DNA from: Thermoproteota archaeon
GTDB taxonomy: Archaea > Korarchaeota > Korarchaeia > Korarchaeales > Korarchaeaceae
Assembly: GCA_026986575.1 (NCBI GenBank)
Contig: JALSOH010000004.1
Coordinates: 288,001 to 352,000, forward strand
Length of the DNA: 64,000 nucleotides
Direction of reading: 5' to 3'
Part shown: piece by piece, positions 26,527 to 34,170 of the stretch
How positions within the stretch are numbered: position 1 is the stretch's first letter
Layout: every line of letters begins with the position of its first letter
The notes under the pieces: generated by a model
What the model saw: the letters and a program-made list of their open reading frames with translations, nothing else
Told to the model about the DNA's origin: nothing
Databases searched by the model: none
Program-made: the position numbers and the translations under genes

Positions 26527-27810
26527 TTAAAGCCCCAAGACATCCTCATATCCCTTCAGGTCCAGCAACCCATGTCCGGAGAAGTTGAAGAGTATAACCT
26601 TCTCCTCACCCTCTTCTTTAGCCTTCAGCGCCTCATCTATTGCCGCTTTCACCGCGTGGGTAGTTTCCGGAGCTGGGATCAGACCTTCAGTCATGGCAAA
26701 TATCTTCCCGGCCTTAAACACGTCCTCTTGTGGGTAAGCAACTGACTTGATCACTCCCTTGGACTTCAGAAGGCTCACCGTCGGAGCGGCACCGTGATAC
26801 CTCAGACCACCAGCGTGTATAGGTGGCGGCACGAAGTCATGCCCGAGTGTGAACATCTTGATGAGAGGAGTCACCCCAGCGCTGTCTCCGAAGTCATACC
26901 TGTACTCCCCCTCCGTAAGTGAGGGAGACGCCCTCGGCTCCACTGCTATAACCTCGTACTCCTCCCTTCCACTTAGTATCTCCTCTATGAAGGGGAAAGT
27001 GAGCCCAGCGAAGTTGCTCCCGCCCCCAACACATCCTATGAGCACATCTGGCTTCTCGCCCAAGATTTCCATCTGTTTCTTGGCTTCTAGTCCTATTACT
27101 GTCTGATGCAGTATCACGTGATTTAGAACGCTTCCCAGCGAGTACTTCGCTTTCTCGTCCTTCATCGCCGTCTCTATTGCCTCACTTATGGCTATGCCTA
27201 AGGAGCCTGGGTGGTTCGGGTCCTGTTCAAGGTACTTCCTGCCGATTTCGGTTCTGTCGCTCGGCGATGGGACGATATCCGCGCCGTAGAGTTTCATAAC
27301 TAGCTTTCTATAGGGCTTCTGTTGGTACGAGATCCTGACCATGAAAACTAGGGCCCTCAATCCCATCATCGAAGTCGCGTAGGACAGCGCACTTCCCCAC
27401 TGCCCCGCACCCGTCTCGGTCGTCAGGTACTCAAGACCCTCCTTGGCGGCACAGAAGGCCTGCACTAATGCGGTGTTCAGCTTGTGGCTTCCTGTCGGAG
27501 TCACATCCTCTCTCTTGTAGTATATCTTAGCCGGAGTCCTAAGATATTCCTCCAATCTCTTGGCCCTGTACAGGGGTGTGGGCCTACCGATCCTCACGTA
27601 AAACTCCCTGAGCTCCTCGGGTATCTTGATGTACCTCTCCTTGGAGAACTCCTGATCCACACACTCCTTCGGGAATAAGGGGTAGAAATCCTTAGGTCCC
27701 AGTGGCTCCTTCGTCGCTGGATGGATGGGTGGCGGTAGATCGGGCAGATCTGAGACTATGTTATACCAATAGGTAGGTATCTCCTCTTGGCTGAGATCTA
27801 CCCTTATCAT
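26527..27810 (-). CDS. trpB2: Tryptophan synthase beta chain, type 2 (stand-alone)
   Basis: [43 protein letters not shown]; no trpA adjacent. Confidence 0.95.
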
Positions 27811-27938
27811 CTGAGTACACCTCCCTCTGAGGAACTGGACGGGTCACTGGACGATCCGGATGTGGCATGGAACGCGGGCATGATGACAATTGCCTTAGAC
27901 AAGGAGAGAGGAGATCTCTTCAGAGGTCTCTCAAGGCC
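27807..27938 (-). other. +1-frame extension of the Trp leader peptide (43 codons, no Trp codon), stop overlaps the trpB2 start (ATGA)
   Basis: GGC CTT GAG ... GTA CTC AGA TGA read by hand; the other two frames close within 12 codons. Confidence 0.6.
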
Positions 27939-27954
27939 AAACTAGATCCCCCAT
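27931..27954 (-). CDS. Leader peptide MGDLVWP (Trp-sensing uORF)
   Basis: ATG GGG GAT CTA GTT TGG CCT TGA with SD GGGGGTG 5 nt upstream and TATA-like TTTTAA at 27999-28004. Confidence 0.75.
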   Translation of the reverse strand: MGDLVWP

Positions 27955-28067
27955 ACTTGCACCCCCTAGAACGGGTTGGGTCGGGGGACCTTCAACAGTT
28001 AAAAGCATTACTGTACAGGGAACTCCGCACAGGTTGCTGGATCCCGATCTCCAAGGAGGCATTCGAT

Positions 28068-29363
28068 ATGGAGAAGCGGAATATCATAATACTCTCACTG
28101 GTTGGATTCGTCATATCCCTGGGATTCGGTGCTATATCTCCAATCCTCCCCTACTACGTGGTCTACTTGGAGGGAGGGATAACTGAGCTCCCCGAGGAAC
28201 TGGGCGTCATCGAGCATGCCTCCCAGTACGCCGTGGAGTATGGTCTGATGATGTCCGCGTTCATGCTAACCCGGGCCTTCTTCGCTAGGTACTTCGGCTC
28301 CCTCAGCGATAGAGTTGGAAGGAAGAAGTTGATAACAGCAGGCTCGATCATATATTCGCTTCTGGCCTATGCGTACATCCTTTCCTCGAGCGTTTACGAC
28401 CTTTATGCTATCAGAGGCCTTCAGGGAATTGCTTCAGCCATGGTCTGGCCCGTCGCCGAGGCATTGCTGATGGACAGCGTTCCGAGCGGGATGAGGGGGA
28501 GATCCATGGCGATATACATGACCTTGACGAATCTAGCAATGATTGGGGGTCCAGCCATAGGCGTGGGTATCTACAAATTAGGTATCCACATATTGGGGAT
28601 AAGAGAGGTTGAACAGGCGCTCAAGTTCCCTTTCATCGGCTTAGCGTTTATATCGGCGTTCTCCATTCTCTTCTCTTTACTACTCAAAGAAGATAGAGTG
28701 GAACTCGCTAAAAAGGCGATGGATTCGCTCAGAGCAGATGTCAGACCTCCCAAATCCATCAGAAGAAGCATAAACACGATTTATGTTATGGCATTGGCTA
28801 ACGGATTTGCGATGGGATTCATAGCCCCAATAATGAGCCTCTACATAATACAATTCATTTCGTCGGACCCGGCCGCAATTGCAGTGGTCACCACGATCTC
28901 TGGGCTCTTTGGATTAGCAGCTGCCTACCCTGGAGGGAGGTTGAGTGACAGATTTGGGCGGAAACCACTGATCTTGATAGCTGGGGTCTTCTCACGTCTC
29001 ATGACCCTGCTTATACCCACCGCTAGAGATGTCGAGGGACTCACAGTCATATCCACCATCAGATCCGTCGCATTCAACATGTACATACCCTCGTTTAGAG
29101 CGCTCCAGGCTGATATAGCCCCAAAGAGCATAAGGGGGAAGGTGTTCGGGACAGTGCAAGCTATGTTCAATGTTGGAGCGGTTTTGGGACCGATAGTTGG
29201 CGGCCAGCTCTACAAAGACTTCGCTCCTCGGATCATACAGGTTGGGGGTATCGTCCTACCGGGTGCCGCGCTATCTTTCATAGCCAGCGCTTCCATCGGA
29301 TTGTTCAGTCTGCTATTGTTCGCTCTGTTCGTGGAAGAGCCAGCTAATCCCCAAGGACAGTAA
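28068..29363 (+). CDS. MFS transporter
   Basis: GSLSDRVGRK and GRLSDRFGRK; start moved to ATG 28068 behind AGGAGG. Confidence 0.9.
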   Translation: MEKRNIIILSLVGFVISLGFGAISPILPYYVVYLEGGITELPEELGVIEHASQYAVEYGLMMSAFMLTRAFFARYFGSLSDRVGRKKLITAGSIIYSLLAYAYILSSSVYDLYAIRGLQGIASAMVWPVAEALLMDSVPSGMRGRSMAIYMTLTNLAMIGGPAIGVGIYKLGIHILGIREVEQALKFPFIGLAFISAFSILFSLLLKEDRVELAKKAMDSLRADVRPPKSIRRSINTIYVMALANGFAMGFIAPIMSLYIIQFISSDPAAIAVVTTISGLFGLAAAYPGGRLSDRFGRKPLILIAGVFSRLMTLLIPTARDVEGLTVISTIRSVAFNMYIPSFRALQADIAPKSIRGKVFGTVQAMFNVGAVLGPIVGGQLYKDFAPRIIQVGGIVLPGAALSFIASASIGLFSLLLFALFVEEPANPQGQ

Positions 29364-29748
29364 CTATTACCTTTCTAGTGCGTGGATGGGTGTCCACTTC
29401 AACCCATATGATGCTCTGCCAAGTTCCCAATGCTAGAGATCCGCCGATCACAGGGAACACCTTACTGGGTTCCATTAGGATGGATCTGAGATGGGAATGC
29501 GCATTTATAGGGTGCTTGTATCCAGCGCCACGGGGGATGATCCTCTCAAGGGCCTCACTTAAATCCTCTAGCAGGGATGGATCGTTCTCGTTGATTATAA
29601 TGGCCCCGGTAGCGTGGGGCGCAAAGACCACGGCTATTCCATCTCTAATTCCGCTCTTCTCAACTATCTCCTGAACATTATCTGTTATATCGATGAAGTT
29701 GATCTCCCCGCCCGTCTTGAATGAGAAGGTAGATGTAACTACCTTCAA
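29344..29748 (-). CDS. yjbQ: YjbQ/UPF0047 family protein
   Basis: DITD, PHATGA, NAHSHL, LGTWQ; start TTG behind GGTGA. Confidence 0.9.
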   Translation of the reverse strand: MKVVTSTFSFKTGGEINFIDITDNVQEIVEKSGIRDGIAVVFAPHATGAIIINENDPSLLEDLSEALERIIPRGAGYKHPINAHSHLRSILMEPSKVFPVIGGSLALGTWQSIIWVEVDTHPRTRKVIVTVLGD

Positions 29749-29793
29749 GGTCCACTCACCTCGCACCCAAAACGCGGTAAAATGTAAATCTTC

Positions 29794-30495
29794 ATGGGGG
29801 TTCCACAGCCTGTGGGGCTGAGGGAAGAGGCTCTGAGGAGCATCCACCTCCTAGTGAGCGGTAGATGGGACAGGATCCCAGACAGCCTCCTCTCATACTT
29901 CGAGGAGGAGCTAGGAGGGGAGGACCCATGCGGAGACCCAGTTGGAGTGGCCTTTCTCCTCATAAAACTCGGGGTGAGCCCCGAGAAAGCGATAGCGCTC
30001 CTCGATTGGAAGGATTTCGAGGGATTATGCGAGAGAGGACTTCAAATATCCGGATTTTCCACTAAGAGAGGTCTTCGATTCACACTACAAGGAAAGAGGT
30101 ATGAGATAGATGTAGTGGCTTCCGACAATGAGGTGACACTGGCTCTCGATTGCAAGATGTGGTCGAAGGGAAGCTCTCCCAAGGTTTACAAAATACTTGA
30201 GGCTACCGAGCACCAATATATGAGGACAATAGCCCTGAAACAAGCTATTGAACGACGCTTATTAGAGGATGTTCATCCAAAGCCAGGACATGGTGTCCTA
30301 GTACCGTGTGTCGTCACTTGGCTAGATTTCGGCACCAAACTATCTAAATCAGGTGTCCCCATAGTCCCGATTTCCAAGTTCCCTTCCTTCGTGAACGACA
30401 TCAGATCCTTCTTAGAAGGGATAGCTGCCTTGGAGGCCAATTTCAGGGTTAAGATTGGGAGAGAAGCTTCCTCACAGCATCGGTTACCCCTCTGA
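29794..30495 (+). CDS. PD-(D/E)XK restriction-endonuclease-like protein
   Basis: WKDFE, YEIDVVA, ALDCK. Confidence 0.75.
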   Translation: MGVPQPVGLREEALRSIHLLVSGRWDRIPDSLLSYFEEELGGEDPCGDPVGVAFLLIKLGVSPEKAIALLDWKDFEGLCERGLQISGFSTKRGLRFTLQGKRYEIDVVASDNEVTLALDCKMWSKGSSPKVYKILEATEHQYMRTIALKQAIERRLLEDVHPKPGHGVLVPCVVTWLDFGTKLSKSGVPIVPISKFPSFVNDIRSFLEGIAALEANFRVKIGREASSQHRLPL

Positions 30496-31735
30496 GGCTC
30501 ACAGTCGTTCTCGCCTGCTCCGTGTAGAGCGTGACGGTTTCGGATTCTTCCTCCTTGGGACCCACGAACGCCATGATTTCAGCCCCCAATTTACGAGCGT
30601 ACTCCCTCTGACCTGACTGGCTCCTTCTCATCAGATCGAGGGAAACGTAGAACCCTCCTCTCCTCAGAATCTCAGCGACCCTCCAAGCGTATTTCCAGCT
30701 ATCCCTCTTGACGCTGATCACGAACACCTGCACGTAACTCCTCTCATCCAAGTTGAAGATCCCGAGCTCCAGTCCAGCATCGATGAGTCGCTCAACGCCC
30801 ACGCTCACTCCAGTAGCCGGGACATCTCTGTTAGAGTACATGCCAATTAGCCTGTCGTATCTTCCACCCCCGGCCAGTGAACCTATTCTGGGCTCCCTAA
30901 CCACTGTCTCGAACACAGGTCCGGTGTAGTACTCAAGACCTCTAACCAGCGACAGGTCGAAGATCAGTCTCTCATCACCTACTATAGAGAAGATCTCCTC
31001 CAAGTGTTTGAGTGCCTCGGAAACAGCTTCATTCCTCATCGAGCTCAAACCCTCGACCATTTCGGAGAACCGGCCCCTCTTGGAGATGAGGTCCATTATT
31101 CTATCGACCAGATCCTCATGCATTCCCTTAGATAGGAGCTCTGCCCTCACTCCTCCTTCACCGATCTTGTCCAGCTTATCTATAGATCTGTAGACGGGGA
31201 TCGGATTGGAAATACCGAGTTCCTCCTCGAAGACGCCCGTTAGGAGCCGTCTGTCGTTCAATTTCACTGTGAAATCCCTGAAACCGAATTCCCTCATTAC
31301 CTCGATGTTCAGGCTTATCACCTCGGCGTCGGCCTCGGGATAGGGGCTGCCCACCACATCCGCATCGCACTGCCAGAATTCCCTGTACCTACCTCTCTGA
31401 GGTTCCTCGTGCCTCCATACTCTCCCTATGTGATACCTCTTGAACGGTAAAGGCGTCTCCGGGTGCATGGCCATGTACCTAGCTAGGGGAAAGGTAAGCT
31501 CGTACCTCAAGGTGTACCACTCCTTGCTGAGGAAGTCCGGAAATATGAACATGAGCCGGCTCTCTGCCTCCTCACCCAATTTGCCCTTGACGGTCTCCCA
31601 GTACTCCAATGCGGGAGTCTCGAACGGGTCGAAGCCGTAGCGCTTGAACACCTCCTCTATCCTCGACATGATTCGCTTCCTTAGGATCATAAATGGAGGG
31701 GGGAAGTCCCTGAACCCCCTCGGTATTGAGACCAA
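30449..31735 (-). CDS. hisS: Histidyl-tRNA synthetase
   Basis: PRGFRD, WRHEEPQRGRYREFWQCD, VRGLEYYTG, GGGRYD, GVERL. Confidence 0.96.
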   Translation of the reverse strand: MVSIPRGFRDFPPPFMILRKRIMSRIEEVFKRYGFDPFETPALEYWETVKGKLGEEAESRLMFIFPDFLSKEWYTLRYELTFPLARYMAMHPETPLPFKRYHIGRVWRHEEPQRGRYREFWQCDADVVGSPYPEADAEVISLNIEVMREFGFRDFTVKLNDRRLLTGVFEEELGISNPIPVYRSIDKLDKIGEGGVRAELLSKGMHEDLVDRIMDLISKRGRFSEMVEGLSSMRNEAVSEALKHLEEIFSIVGDERLIFDLSLVRGLEYYTGPVFETVVREPRIGSLAGGGRYDRLIGMYSNRDVPATGVSVGVERLIDAGLELGIFNLDERSYVQVFVISVKRDSWKYAWRVAEILRRGGFYVSLDLMRRSQSGQREYARKLGAEIMAFVGPKEEESETVTLYTEQARTTVSLRGVTDAVRKLLSQS

Positions 31736-31746
31736 AATTTTCCACC

Positions 31747-32890
31747 CTAGGCTGCGAGCACCTGCTCCCATATATCGTTGATCTTGGCTCTCTTCTCGTC
31801 GGTCATCACTGGAGATAGATACAACCTCTTCATGAGGTCAGGTGGAGGTATGAGAGCGGGCTCCTCAGCCAGCTCAGACGGGAGGAGCTTCTTGGTTGCC
31901 GGTATGGGCATCGCTATGTAGACGGAGATCGTCTTGTAAGCCGCCACCAGCGGATCTATGAGGTAGTTTATGAGAGCTTGGGCGGCCTCCGGATTAGGAG
32001 CATCCTTGGGGACGAGCAGGTTGTCTATCCAGGCTATCGCTCCCTCCTCCGGAATCAGGTACGATATGTTCTTGAACCCGTCGCCGTACTTCATAGTGAG
32101 CACATCCCCGTTGTAGGCGTGGGCGGCCAGCAGAGACCCGTTCTCTAATCCCGGTAGGTACTTGTCCGTGCTGAAGTAACCCGCTATATACGGTTTCTGC
32201 TTAATGAGGGCCTCCTTAACCTCCTCCATCGTGGAATCACTCCAGTCATCTAATTCCTTTCCTAAGTACAGTTTGGTGGCGAACACGACCTCAGGCGGAT
32301 CCTCCAGCATAGAGAACTTCCTCTTATACTTCTGCAAGTAATTAGGATCGAAGAATTGCTTCCAACTCCTCAGATCCTTTACCTCGTCAGAGTTGAGTCC
32401 TATGGCCGTACTACCGAATCCATACGGGACCGAATAGTTGTTCCCAGGATCATATTCAAGTTCCCTGAACTTGGGATCCAAGTACTTCAGGTTGGGAATA
32501 AGCTCCTTATCCAGCTTCCTGACGTATCCCCTCTCTATGGCATTTCTCACGTACTTATCGGTGAGCACCACAATGTCGTAGCCGCTCCCACCCGCCTCGA
32601 GCTTAGCAAATGCTTCATCATCACTGTCGAACACATCATAGACCACTTTGACGCCAGTCTCGTCCTTGAAGAGCTCGAAGACGAAGGGGTTGTTGTTATT
32701 GCTCCAGTCGTACATGGCGACCTTCCCAGAGAGCTCTCTCTTGGCCTCGCTCGCTTCCCGCTCAACCTTCGCCTGAGAGACGGAAGATCCATAAAAGTAG
32801 CCGACAGAACCACCGACGATTAAACCGGCAGTCCCAACGACTGCTAACTTGATGAAATCTCTCCTAGAGGTGAACTAAATCCCCCATCAT
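31747..32890 (-). CDS. PotD/PotF-family solute-binding protein with Tat signal; needs a +1 frameshift near 32872 (about 380 aa)
   Basis: Body YDW..FKDETGVKVVYD, YSVPY, IPEEG..WIDN; frame extends to TSRRDFIKLAVVG... but has no start codon and is closed by TAG at 32877-32875; MMGDLV lies in the adjacent frame. Confidence 0.85.
32864..32890 (-). CDS. Leader peptide (M)MGDLVHL (His-sensing uORF)
   Basis: ATG ATG GGG GAT TTA GTT CAC CTC TAG, SD GGGGTGA, ATGA overlap with the hisD stop. Confidence 0.7.
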   Translation of the reverse strand: MMGDLVHL

Positions 32891-34170
32891 GTCACCCCGT
32901 TGCTGGGGCCTGTATCAGGCCCCTTATAAATTTTTCCTCTAACCTCGGCGGATCTGGCGTGGTACTCCAACCCCTCCAACCTAGCGAACTTAGCGACCCT
33001 CTCGGAGATCGAGGCTTGGGCCTCTAGGGTCCCACTCTGCCTGTAAACATATATTCCAGAGAAGTCCCTGAAGAACGAGAACGGGCTAAGGCCAGGCCTC
33101 TCCGTCAGGGTACCTCCAGTGGGCAGGATGTGATTCGCTCCCGTGTAACCGTAATCACCGTACACTACTCCTACGCCCTCGAATACGGCTCCAGCTAGCC
33201 TTGCATCGAATTTCCCCATTATCTCCAGATGTTCAGGTGTGAAAACATCGCTGAAATTCTCCAAGGATCTCTTGTCCCCATACAGTATGCCGCCCCTCTC
33301 CATGAGGGAAGAGACCCTCCCATCCCCCGAATATTTATCGAGCTCCTCTCTCAGCCTGAGCGCCAGTTCCCTAGAAGTGACGAGGACTAGAGAAATGGAG
33401 TCGGGTCCGTGCTCCGCTTGAGCGAGCATATCCATGACCACGAACTCGATGGGAAAGCTACCATCGTAGAGAATGAGAACCTCCGACGGTCCCGCTAGGA
33501 GATCTATTCTCACATCCCTCGAAACGACTGCCTTGGCAGCTGTCACGTAGGAGTTCCCGGGTCCCACGATCATATCAACTGGCTCTAGGCCGACTTCAGG
33601 AAGTCCGTAGGCGAGAGAAGCTATTGCTTGGATCCCACCAACTCTCAGAACCTCATCTATGCCCAGTCGGGCAGCCAATCCTTCTATAAGTCCGGAGTTC
33701 CTAGGAGGCGTAGCCACGACGAATTCTTCAACTCCCGCCGCCCTAGCGGGGGCTATTGCCATAAGCAGGGAGGAGGGGAGGGGGTGCCTGCCCCCAGGAA
33801 CGTAGACACCGACCCTCTTCACAGGCTCCGATACCTTATCCTCCCTTATCCACTCCAGTCGGGTCTTGAAACCCCCAACGAAGCATTCCCTCCCATCCAA
33901 CAGGGATACAGCGCAGGTGTATAACCTCTCGTAGGGCTCTAACACGAATTCGTCTACTCTGTAGTCATGCGGGGCTCCATATACCTCCTCCTCGGCTAAT
34001 CTAATCCCGTCGAATTTCTCGGTCAGATGTAACACACTTTTCAGTCCTCTCTCCCTCACCTCACTCACTAGGCTGGCGGCGACCTCGACTGGTAAGCTGA
34101 TCCTCTCGCGGAGCTTGGAGAAGGCTTCATTCCAGAGCTCCCTTACGTCACCGAAGAGGGCCAGTTCCAT
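32887..34170 (-). CDS. hisD: Histidinol dehydrogenase
   Basis: GVYVPGG, GGIQAIA, GPGNSYV, AGPSE, AQAEH, PEHL, GDY..GANHILPT, H at LEYHARS. Confidence 0.88.
   Translation of the reverse strand: MELALFGDVRELWNEAFSKLRERISLPVEVAASLVSEVRERGLKSVLHLTEKFDGIRLAEEEVYGAPHDYRVDEFVLEPYERLYTCAVSLLDGRECFVGGFKTRLEWIREDKVSEPVKRVGVYVPGGRHPLPSSLLMAIAPARAAGVEEFVVATPPRNSGLIEGLAARLGIDEVLRVGGIQAIASLAYGLPEVGLEPVDMIVGPGNSYVTAAKAVVSRDVRIDLLAGPSEVLILYDGSFPIEFVVMDMLAQAEHGPDSISLVLVTSRELALRLREELDKYSGDGRVSSLMERGGILYGDKRSLENFSDVFTPEHLEIMGKFDARLAGAVFEGVGVVYGDYGYTGANHILPTGGTLTERPGLSPFSFFRDFSGIYVYRQSGTLEAQASISERVAKFARLEGLEYHARSAEVRGKIYKGPDTGPSNGVT
32905..32936 (-). promoter_or_regulatory. Internal BRE/TATA at the hisD 3' end followed by a perfect 8-bp inverted repeat
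   Basis: GAAAAA-TTTATAA (32936-32924), then GGGGCCTG-ATA-CAGGCCCC (32923-32905). Confidence 0.55.

Follow-up and report, generated by a model that had tools for sequence, protein, structure and literature searches.

Why should two minute open reading frames (ORFs), one before a tryptophan gene and one among histidine genes, begin with nearly the same letters and name in their sixth codon the amino acid of their surroundings? This question is raised by a 64,000-nt stretch from a Thermoproteota archaeon of the family Korarchaeaceae (GCA_026986575.1, contig JALSOH010000004.1, positions 288,001 to 352,000; hereafter the window). The Trp leader ORF, ATG GGG GAT CTA GTT TGG CCT TGA (MGDLVWP-stop, 27954-27931), precedes trpB2, and the His leader ORF, ATG GGG GAT TTA GTT CAC CTC TAG (MGDLVHL-stop, 32887-32864), has an ATG that overlaps the hisD stop (TGATG). 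Both are on the minus strand, as are all the cassette parts and target genes of the window described below, and they agree at 14 of their first 15 nt. An earlier note on this DNA had proposed them as a shared +1 frameshift switch that senses amino acids at two loci. Our reading of the sequence confirms both micro-ORFs, each with a Shine-Dalgarno (SD) sequence and a TATA-like box, and confirms that the useful frame is +1 in both cases, leading through a 43-codon ORF onto the trpB2 ATG at one locus and into a binding protein beginning TSRRDFIK at the other. The number of loci, however, is not two: this genome has five. We propose, as the probable answer to the question, that these cassettes are hungry-codon programmed +1 frameshift elements of a prfB-like build, which would sense aminoacyl-tRNA.

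The Trp leader transcript has a TATA-like box, CTTTTAAC (27998..28005), about 40-45 nt 5' of the leader ATG, where the Trp loci of relatives show TTTTTAA or TTTTAA about 45 nt 5' of theirs. Its SD, GGGGGTG (27966-27960), lies 5 nt 5' of the ATG and complements the 16S 3' end ...GGATCACCTCC; GGAGGTG or GGGGGTG is found at this place in 18 of the 18 Trp loci compared. Leader nt 4-10 form an internal SD-like element, GGGGATC (27945..27951), which ends 2 nt 5' of the slip codon and has a presumed function in the shift. The proposed shift site itself consists of a P-site GTT (27942-27940) and the sensor codon TGG (27939-27937), and NTT-TGG is invariant in all Trp cassettes. The +1 frame then continues as a connecting ORF of 43 codons (27807..27938), whose TGA (27809-27807) overlaps the trpB2 ATG at 27810 (ATGA). 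The gene trpB2 (27810-26527; own SD GGGAGGTG at 27825-27818) encodes a TrpB-like pyridoxal phosphate enzyme (Pfam PALP; NF009057, 702 bits). Since TrpA and IGPS gave no match in the genome, with positive controls detected in 14 of 14 cases, trpB2 is a stand-alone enzyme, probably with a role in salvage.

Throughout the genus, the Trp cassette stands 5' of trpB2 in 21 of 21 genomes, 20 of them by the exact pattern and one (G002) in a form starting with GTG. A search of these genomes with the exact pattern gave 31 matches, all at the Trp or His loci, and a single match in the reversed control. Codons 2, 3, 5 and 6 are fixed among the 21 distinct Trp leaders; codon 7 is CCT or one of the synonyms CTC/CTT/CTG/CTA, and the stop may be TGA, TAA or TAG. 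The spacer to trpB2, 82-136 nt, diverges in both sequence and length, the 21 leaders forming 10 clusters at >=70% identity. From the shift site to trpB2, stops number 72 in frame 0, 0 in frame +1 and 42 in frame +2, and the stop that closes the +1 frame overlaps the trpB2 start in every case (ATGA or RTGCTGA). All 21 spacer lengths are multiples of 3, and trpB2 is always in leader frame 0. In shuffled spacers, the +1 frame was open by chance with a probability of 0.035-0.64 per locus, and the +1 frame of one spacer (L061) contains no ATG, GTG or TTG. To judge from these counts, the +1 frame of the trpB2 spacer is kept open. The conservation of cassette and +1 frame that the earlier note had expected is thus found, for the Trp cassette in the whole genus and, as variants, in five more genera, and for the His cassette as an identical leader in 11 genomes.

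In those five genera, a ParB-fold gene lies 5' of trpB2, its stop overlapping the trpB2 start; its match to the N-terminal part of SerK, the ADP-dependent serine kinase, scores below the family cut-off. The Trp cassette variants stand directly before this SerK-like gene and are contiguous with it in the +1 frame; they read GTG GGG GAT CTA GTT TGG, ATG AAT GTA GGG GAT CTA GTT TGG, ATG GGT GAC CTA GTT TGG, ATG GGT GAC CGT CTT TGG and ATG GGT GGT TTA CTT TGG. In a genus from a different family, the cassette is lacking and the start is an ordinary one. It seems that in our genus the connecting ORF occupies the former place of the SerK-like gene. Loci L076, L096-L101 and L108-L112 have the SerK-like gene between cassette and trpB2, and this genus instead has an ORF of 30-48 codons without conserved sequence. 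TrpB2 enzymes reportedly use O-phosphoserine, and this would account for a serine kinase as their partner.

The His cassette is built in the same way. Its TATA box, TTTATAA (32930-32924), lies inside the 3' end of the 5' neighbour hisD (histidinol dehydrogenase, 34170-32887) and, like its Trp counterpart, about 40-45 nt 5' of the leader ATG; it is present in 9 of the 9 loci compared. Its SD, GGGGTGA (32898-32892), is 5 nt 5' of the ATG, and leader nt 4-10 again form an internal SD-like element, GGGGATT (32878..32884). The proposed shift site comprises a P-site GTT (32875-32873) and the sensor CAC (32872-32870), and GTT CAC occurs in the hisG cassette as well. The earlier note had placed this His codon between hisD and hisS; the position is correct, but the gene directly behind the cassette encodes a PotD/PotF-like solute-binding protein of 374 aa (31747..32871), which lies in the +1 frame of the leader and has a twin-arginine (Tat)-type signal, TSRRDFIK.... 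Only then follows hisS (31771-30449), which shares 25 nt with the end of the gene for the binding protein and is possibly coupled to it.

The order hisD-cassette-binding protein-hisS is kept in 11 of 11 loci, and the His leader is letter-identical in the 11 genomes while its flanks diverge; a 29-nt stretch, ATGGGGGATTTAGTTCACCTCTAGGAGRG, is invariant in nine loci with divergent 5' flanks. The binding protein is 83-97% identical to its counterparts in the 10 other genomes, compared with 63-93% for hisD and 74-97% for hisS, and since it is better conserved than these neighbours, it is not a pseudogene. Its frame shows a TAG and then the twin-arginine signal FTSRRDF(I/L)K, and in none of the 11 loci does an ATG, GTG or TTG of the +1 frame precede the RR motif. 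Because the Tat signal has no start codon of its own, production of the binding protein would need a +1 shift. Gene callers place the starts of the orthologues downstream (366 or 339 aa) and thereby lose the conserved Tat motif. Of additional note, the clade of this genome has a second in-frame ATG just 5' of the leader ATG (ATGATG, 32885-32890), where distant species have a single ATG. A genome without the binding protein carries, before a 58-codon ORF, the sequence ATG GGG GAT TAA CTT CAC CTC... with a stop at codon 4 (L151, G001:C56), which may be a decayed relic of a His cassette.

Relaxing the motif revealed three further cassettes of this genome, all outside the window: ATG GGT GAC GGC CTT TGC TGA before cysS (PF01406, E 3.8e-114), ATG ACA GGT GAC CTC CTT TGG CCC TGA before trpS, and ATG ACC GGT GAT CCC GTT CAC CGT TAG before hisG (TIGR00070). 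The gene is in the +1 frame in each case, and the five loci of this genome are accordingly Trp/trpB2, His/binding protein, cysS, trpS and hisG. The cysS cassette is present in 17 of the 17 genus loci whose 5' end is covered, with CTTTGCTGA invariant and codon 4 free, a count that leaves out nine loci of other genera (L135-L139, L141-L144) whose motif was unparsed. The trpS cassette was found by pattern in 6 genomes and in 5 of 5 further genomes examined; its leader peptides vary (MPGDFLWL, MQGGSLWR, MQGGSLWQW, MPSGDVFW) while GGTGR-N4-NTT-TGG is kept. The hisG cassette occurs in 3 genomes.

Related cassettes were found before other genes of the family: TGG before trpS of another genus (NF008924, 655 bits, cut-off 644), TGT before a SerK-like gene plus a cysteine synthase gene (TIGR01136, 327.6 bits, just below the 344-bit cut-off), and CCT before proC in 4 genomes (TIGR00112, 248.7 bits). 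The proC survey gave an N-terminal alignment for 15 of 27 loci, and the four cassettes are among those 15. A TGG cassette (MGDRVWLY-stop) also precedes trpE (L169/L202, G015:C1:386110-387484; TIGR01820, 524 bits); trpE is present in only 1 of 36 family genomes, and this single copy has a Trp cassette, which suggests that cassettes can be placed before newly gained operons.

The proposal that codon 6 follows the amino acid handled by the downstream gene thus extends well beyond the window. Loci with the sensor TGG number 21 at trpB2, 11 at SerK-like/trpB2, 14 at trpS (9 + 5) and 1 at trpE; those with CAC, 11 at the binding protein beside hisD/hisS and 3 at hisG; those with TGC, 17 at cysS; those with TGT, 2 at the SerK-like and cysteine synthase genes; and those with CCT, 4 at proC. 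The sensor codon is therefore cognate to the amino acid of the gene in nine gene contexts. In eight of them the target gene itself is in the +1 frame, and in the ninth, trpB2 of this genus, it is reached via the +1 connecting ORF. Our consolidated pass placed 79 of 81 contexts before a cognate gene, which is a tally rather than a test, the five sensor codons having been preset. Searching without a sensor (ATGGGKGAYNNNSTT) in 43 genomes of the phylum gave 115 matches (90 + 25), compared with 42 in the reversed control (33 + 9). By our own count, 61 of the 115 are cassettes before a cognate gene; 11 of the other 54 were inspected, and the remaining 43 are uninspected single matches, to be set beside the 42 of the reversed control. 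Ten sensor-free matches (L150, L152-L155, L157, L158, L170-L172) are ordinary ORFs or lack a target. When this genome was scanned by rule, for a short ORF with a TATA box, [GC]TT plus a pyrimidine, an open +1 frame and a stretch that complements the 16S end, the cassettes made up 5 of the 8 loci obtained. Of the other three, the one examined (C8:12599) is inside a long ORF without a Pfam match, and other scan matches, including C4:224803, C11:62056 and C6:133038, are within ordinary ORFs or lack an SD.

As in the binding protein, start codons are missing from several other targets: neither TrpRS of L145 nor ProC of L173 and L174 has an ATG, GTG or TTG in the +1 frame ahead of its conserved N-terminus. 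The family profiles start just past the shift site, at residue 2 for HisG, residue 4 for ProC and profile position 7 for TrpRS.

What is shared by all cassettes is not the peptide MGDLV, as the earlier note had supposed, but a core of nucleotides, GGKGR-N4-NTT-sensor. This core (GGKGR, 4 nt, NTT and the sensor codon) keeps the same register in every cassette type, and the full build is a promoter, an SD, a start codon, 0-2 variable codons, GGKGR, 4 nt, NTT, the sensor, 0-14 codons and a stop. The leader peptides differ (MGDLVW, MTGDLLW, MQGGSLW, MPSGDVFW), the residues encoded by GGKGRN vary (G-D, G-G, G-E), and codon 4 is free. One Cys and one Trp cassette are identical in their first 17 nt, and only the third sensor base tells them apart. 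GGKGR(Y) has its complement, in a single register, at the 16S 3' end ...GGAUCACCUCC (16S GAUCACC); scores for this complementarity are circular, the motif having already been fixed as GGKGR. The slip codon NTT is CTT, GTT or, once, TTT. GTT, which the earlier note had named, holds at both window loci, but CTT is commoner across the family; CTT-T is seen in cysS, trpS and some SerK/trpB2 cassettes, and the window cassettes have GTT-T and GTT-C. Similarly, the TAG of the +1 frame just before the sensor is present at both window loci but is not universal among cassettes.

In all cassettes, NTT directly precedes a single-family codon, which at the level of sequence is the layout of hungry-codon shifting. 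Every sensor codon begins with U or C, as re-pairing on UU-Y requires, and the P-site codon after a +1 slip would be UUU or UUC. By standard pairing rules, tRNA-Leu(GAG) could read UUU/UUC with a position-1 wobble, and tRNA-Val(GAC) could do so at the cost of one mismatch. In frame 0, the stop comes 0-14 codons after the sensor, and the codon before this stop shows no conservation; both speak against a shift at the stop codon.

Taking these features together, we suggest the following mechanism. Ribosomes would initiate on the leader and come to hold peptidyl-tRNA(Val/Leu) on NUU in the P site, with the sensor codon (TGG, CAC, TGC/TGT or CCT) in the A site. When the cognate aminoacyl-tRNA is ample, the sensor would be read and translation would terminate a few codons later. 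When it is scarce, the A site would stay empty and the P-site tRNA could re-pair one base 3' on UU(U/C), a slip in which GGKGR probably assists through base pairs with the 16S 3' end. The shifted ribosome would then read into the gene or, at trpB2, run to the overlapping stop-start and re-initiate. For the window, the outcome would be more TrpB2 upon Trp shortage and more of the PotD-like protein, and perhaps of the hisS product behind it, upon His shortage. The conservation, the frame relations, the match of sensor and gene, the absence of start codons and the correctness of the DNA are established facts on which this scheme builds.

One alternative is leader-peptide stalling without a frameshift, of the erm/cat or trp/his type, in which a stalled ribosome remodels the mRNA and frees a start site, the +1 relation being incidental. 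It would suit trpS, hisG and trpB2, which have start codons of their own. In the trpS leader, moreover, CCUCCUUU, which overlaps the slip codon, complements without a mismatch the trpS SD AAAGGAGG, 14 nt 3' (G000 C6:448416-448480, L161); such a hairpin could serve as a further level of masking. In folds, the Trp cassette also often pairs through its 5' half with a downstream pyrimidine tract. But for the binding protein, ProC (L173, L174) and TrpRS (L145), there is neither a start codon nor an SD that could be unmasked. The +1 frame contains or leads to every target, and stalling would not account for its freedom from stops in the 21 spacers (0, compared with 72 and 42 in the other frames). 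Nor is there excess pairing of the trpB2 SD: sequestration at this site, tried as a candidate, finds no support, with a pairing of 0.72 observed and 0.74 in shuffled spacers (n=21, 37 C parameters). We consider stalling of this kind improbable. A conserved hairpin is at best a candidate, the pairing registers in minimum free energy (MFE) folds differing among clades. An Rfam scan at gathering thresholds of the window and three cassette loci found only three tRNAs, none at the cassettes.

Next comes +1 frameshifting at a fixed ratio, in which a constant fraction of ribosomes shifts regardless of supply and the sixth codon is merely slow. All evidence for the +1 shift fits this scheme equally well, a response to supply being something we infer from the sequence. 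What it leaves unexplained is the match of sensor and gene in nine contexts, as well as cassettes that differ in the sensor codon alone, and we would give it a low probability, like the stalling scheme before it. Shifting by a constitutive quadruplet reader would leave the same match unexplained, and a special tRNA for quadruplet decoding was rejected, none of the 42 tRNAs that ARAGORN found in the genome having an odd anticodon loop. Transcriptional slippage was likewise set aside, with no homopolymer run at the junction and T runs of 2-3 nt.

Unconventional or overlapping initiation would explain the reading frame differently: the main ORF would start at the +1 GTG of GGTG-type cassettes or at a non-canonical codon, and the leader would compete for the ribosome-binding site. 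All GGTG-type cassettes do have this GTG, with no stop between it and the gene, and gene callers do start the binding-protein orthologues downstream, at 366 or 339 aa. However, GGGG-type cassettes (both window loci, trpE and trpS of another genus) have no such GTG, the YTA GTT cassettes, to which both window loci belong, carry a +1 TAG just before the slip codon, and the downstream starts delete the conserved twin-arginine motif. A stalled leader ribosome would also cover the GTG, which gives the wrong direction of control. We think it the least probable of these three schemes.

Finally, an artefact or chance origin (a base inserted in assembly, a pseudogene or a 15-mer that matches by coincidence) is refuted and has practically no probability left: 64 kb of DNA may well contain one 14/15 match between two sites, but the pattern is confined to these loci, is kept across 21 species and is covered by a gap-free independent contig, and the binding protein is 83-97% identical among genomes. 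Allowing <=1 mismatch, ATGGGGGAYYTAGTT, which has two Y positions, occurs 2 times in the window, compared with 0.07 expected, and 0 of 100 shuffles gave >=2; the 1.91-Mb genome has the 2 exact sites and one site with 1 mismatch. Contig X2, which comes from a different study and differs by 5 single-nucleotide polymorphisms (SNPs), covers 27700-33100 without a gap or indel. The earlier note had named an assembly insertion of the C at 32872 as a possible source of error; X2 has no indel there. Since an independent contig and 10 other genomes have the same letters, both cassettes are real DNA, neither assembly artefact nor chance.

Several points weigh against frameshifting as we propose it. It is a prediction from sequence that ribosomes shift here, at which exact site they do so, that amino-acid supply governs the event and that the SD-like element has a part in it. 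At the binding protein, genomic context is what suggests a tie to histidine. No hisS cassette was found in 5 examined genomes without the binding protein, so the His cassette belongs to the binding protein rather than to hisS. The P-site tRNA-Val of the window cassettes would meet a first-position mismatch in moving from GUU to UUU/UUC, a worse fit than that of tRNA-Leu on CUU by pairing-rule reasoning. GGTG-type cassettes (cysS, trpS, hisG, proC) hold a GTG in the +1 frame. The genes trpB2, hisG and, in the clade of this genome, trpS have start codons of their own, trpS and trpB2 with an SD as well, and these starts provide a basal, shift-free route there. Because the trpB2 SD is no more paired than in shuffled spacers, how unshifted ribosomes would keep trpB2 silent is left unexplained. 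It would be odd for an essential TrpRS to be wholly shift-dependent, as in L145. This genome also contains a second, divergent TrpRS-like gene with an ordinary start (G000, C6:466301-467353; 35% identity to the query), which could supply basal activity where trpS is cassette-controlled. The support is thin in places, with trpE in one genome and proC in four, only four amino acids represented and the genomes being kin.

Some features around the two loci may be recorded here. An MFS transporter gene on the plus strand starts at 28068, divergent from the Trp cassette. The ORF list runs this gene 67 codons further 5' (27867-28067, plus strand), across the cassette on the opposite strand; its Pfam match and the strong SD AAGGAGG place the start at 28068, and the cassette therefore lies in the divergent intergenic region. 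In MFE folds of 27954-27890 and of its counterparts in relatives, the 5' half of the Trp cassette, AUGGGGGAU, is often paired with a pyrimidine-rich tract (CUCCC/AUCUCC) 25-40 nt 3', in clade-specific registers. Between the two loci are a protein with a weak Mrr-type restriction-endonuclease domain (29794-30495, plus strand) and a UPF0047 protein (29344-29847, minus strand), both unrelated. HisA/F and HisG of this genome are encoded on another contig.

The proposed scheme recalls that of bacterial prfB, whose shift site reads AGGGGG TAT CTT TGA. Both have a short 0-frame ORF that ends soon after the shift site with the product in the +1 frame. A G-rich SD-like element, in the cassettes a putative stimulator, lies a few nt 5' of the slip site, which is CUU-U in prfB and in part of the cassettes, and a slow A-site codon would be the trigger that unites sensor and effector. 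The spacing is 3 nt in prfB and 4 nt from GGKGR in the cassettes. In prfB, the A-site codon is UGA, read by its own product RF2, whereas the cassettes have a sense codon and would sense aminoacyl-tRNA. The cassettes are also modular, in at least nine gene contexts, and archaeal, and GUU and UUU serve as slip codons besides CUU. RF2 is made from the new frame, as a passage of PMC5009743 describes. We would thus class the cassettes as a variant of regulatory +1 frameshifting that acts in a prfB-like way, outside the prfB family and with the logic of leader-peptide attenuation.

For decades, hungry-codon frameshifting has been familiar as leaky translation. As on the Ty1 site CUU-AGG-C, where CUU is the slip codon, a P-site tRNA in the cassettes would slip +1 while an A-site sense codon awaits a scarce tRNA. 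Starvation-induced shifting in E. coli is, however, experimental leakiness and Ty1 works at a fixed ratio set by a rare tRNA, whereas the cassettes are conserved before cognate genes. Of a starvation-specific use of such shifting, "no examples are known" according to a passage in Atkins et al. (2016, PMC5009743).

Bacterial trp/his attenuation shares with the cassettes leader codons that name the amino acid of the operon (trpE, hisG) and stalling upon shortage of charged tRNA, but it uses tandem codon runs and sets transcriptional read-through, whereas the archaeal cassettes have a single sensor codon and would set the reading frame. There is no room for a terminator or antiterminator at the His locus, cysS, hisG and proC, where the gene overlaps or abuts the leader, and folds of the trpB2 leaders show no common terminator-like element. 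T-boxes act on the same gene classes (aminoacyl-tRNA synthetases, biosynthesis, transport), with one specifying codon and sensing of tRNA charging; they are, however, RNAs of 200-300 nt that bind uncharged tRNA untranslated, while the cassettes are translated ORFs of 6-20 codons without an Rfam match. A programmed frameshift in a cellular gene of an archaeon, that of fucA1 in Saccharolobus solfataricus, is a -1 shift on A-AAA-AAT within an enzyme gene, without known regulatory logic. In a passage of a 2021 review (PMC8211752), this -1 shift is the only frameshift reported in Archaea, with a +1 shift merely likely in one haloarchaeal virus. The main text of the GeneTack survey (PMC3711429) mentions neither these genes nor this lineage, and our full-text literature search found no description of such an element.

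To our knowledge, how archaea sense the shortage of a single amino acid and adjust their synthetase and pathway genes is largely open. We favor, with somewhat less confidence than the mechanism itself, the view that this archaeal family uses hungry-codon +1 shifting as a general starvation sensor, in the form of a 25-60-nt cassette that can be retargeted by changing one codon and is placed before Trp, His, Cys and Pro genes for synthetases, biosynthesis and uptake. Because the element is short, modular and defined to the nucleotide, the idea is directly testable. It also has practical sides: gene callers mis-start or truncate these genes, as with the binding-protein orthologues that lose their Tat motif, and an amino-acid-responsive translational switch programmable by one codon may be of use in the engineering of thermophiles. 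If our reading is true, hungry-codon shifting would here have its first regulatory use in nature, and Archaea their first cellular frameshift of the +1 type; hungry-codon frameshifting would then be a selected regulatory device, and the cassettes would be a functional counterpart, in archaea, of bacterial attenuation and T-box control.

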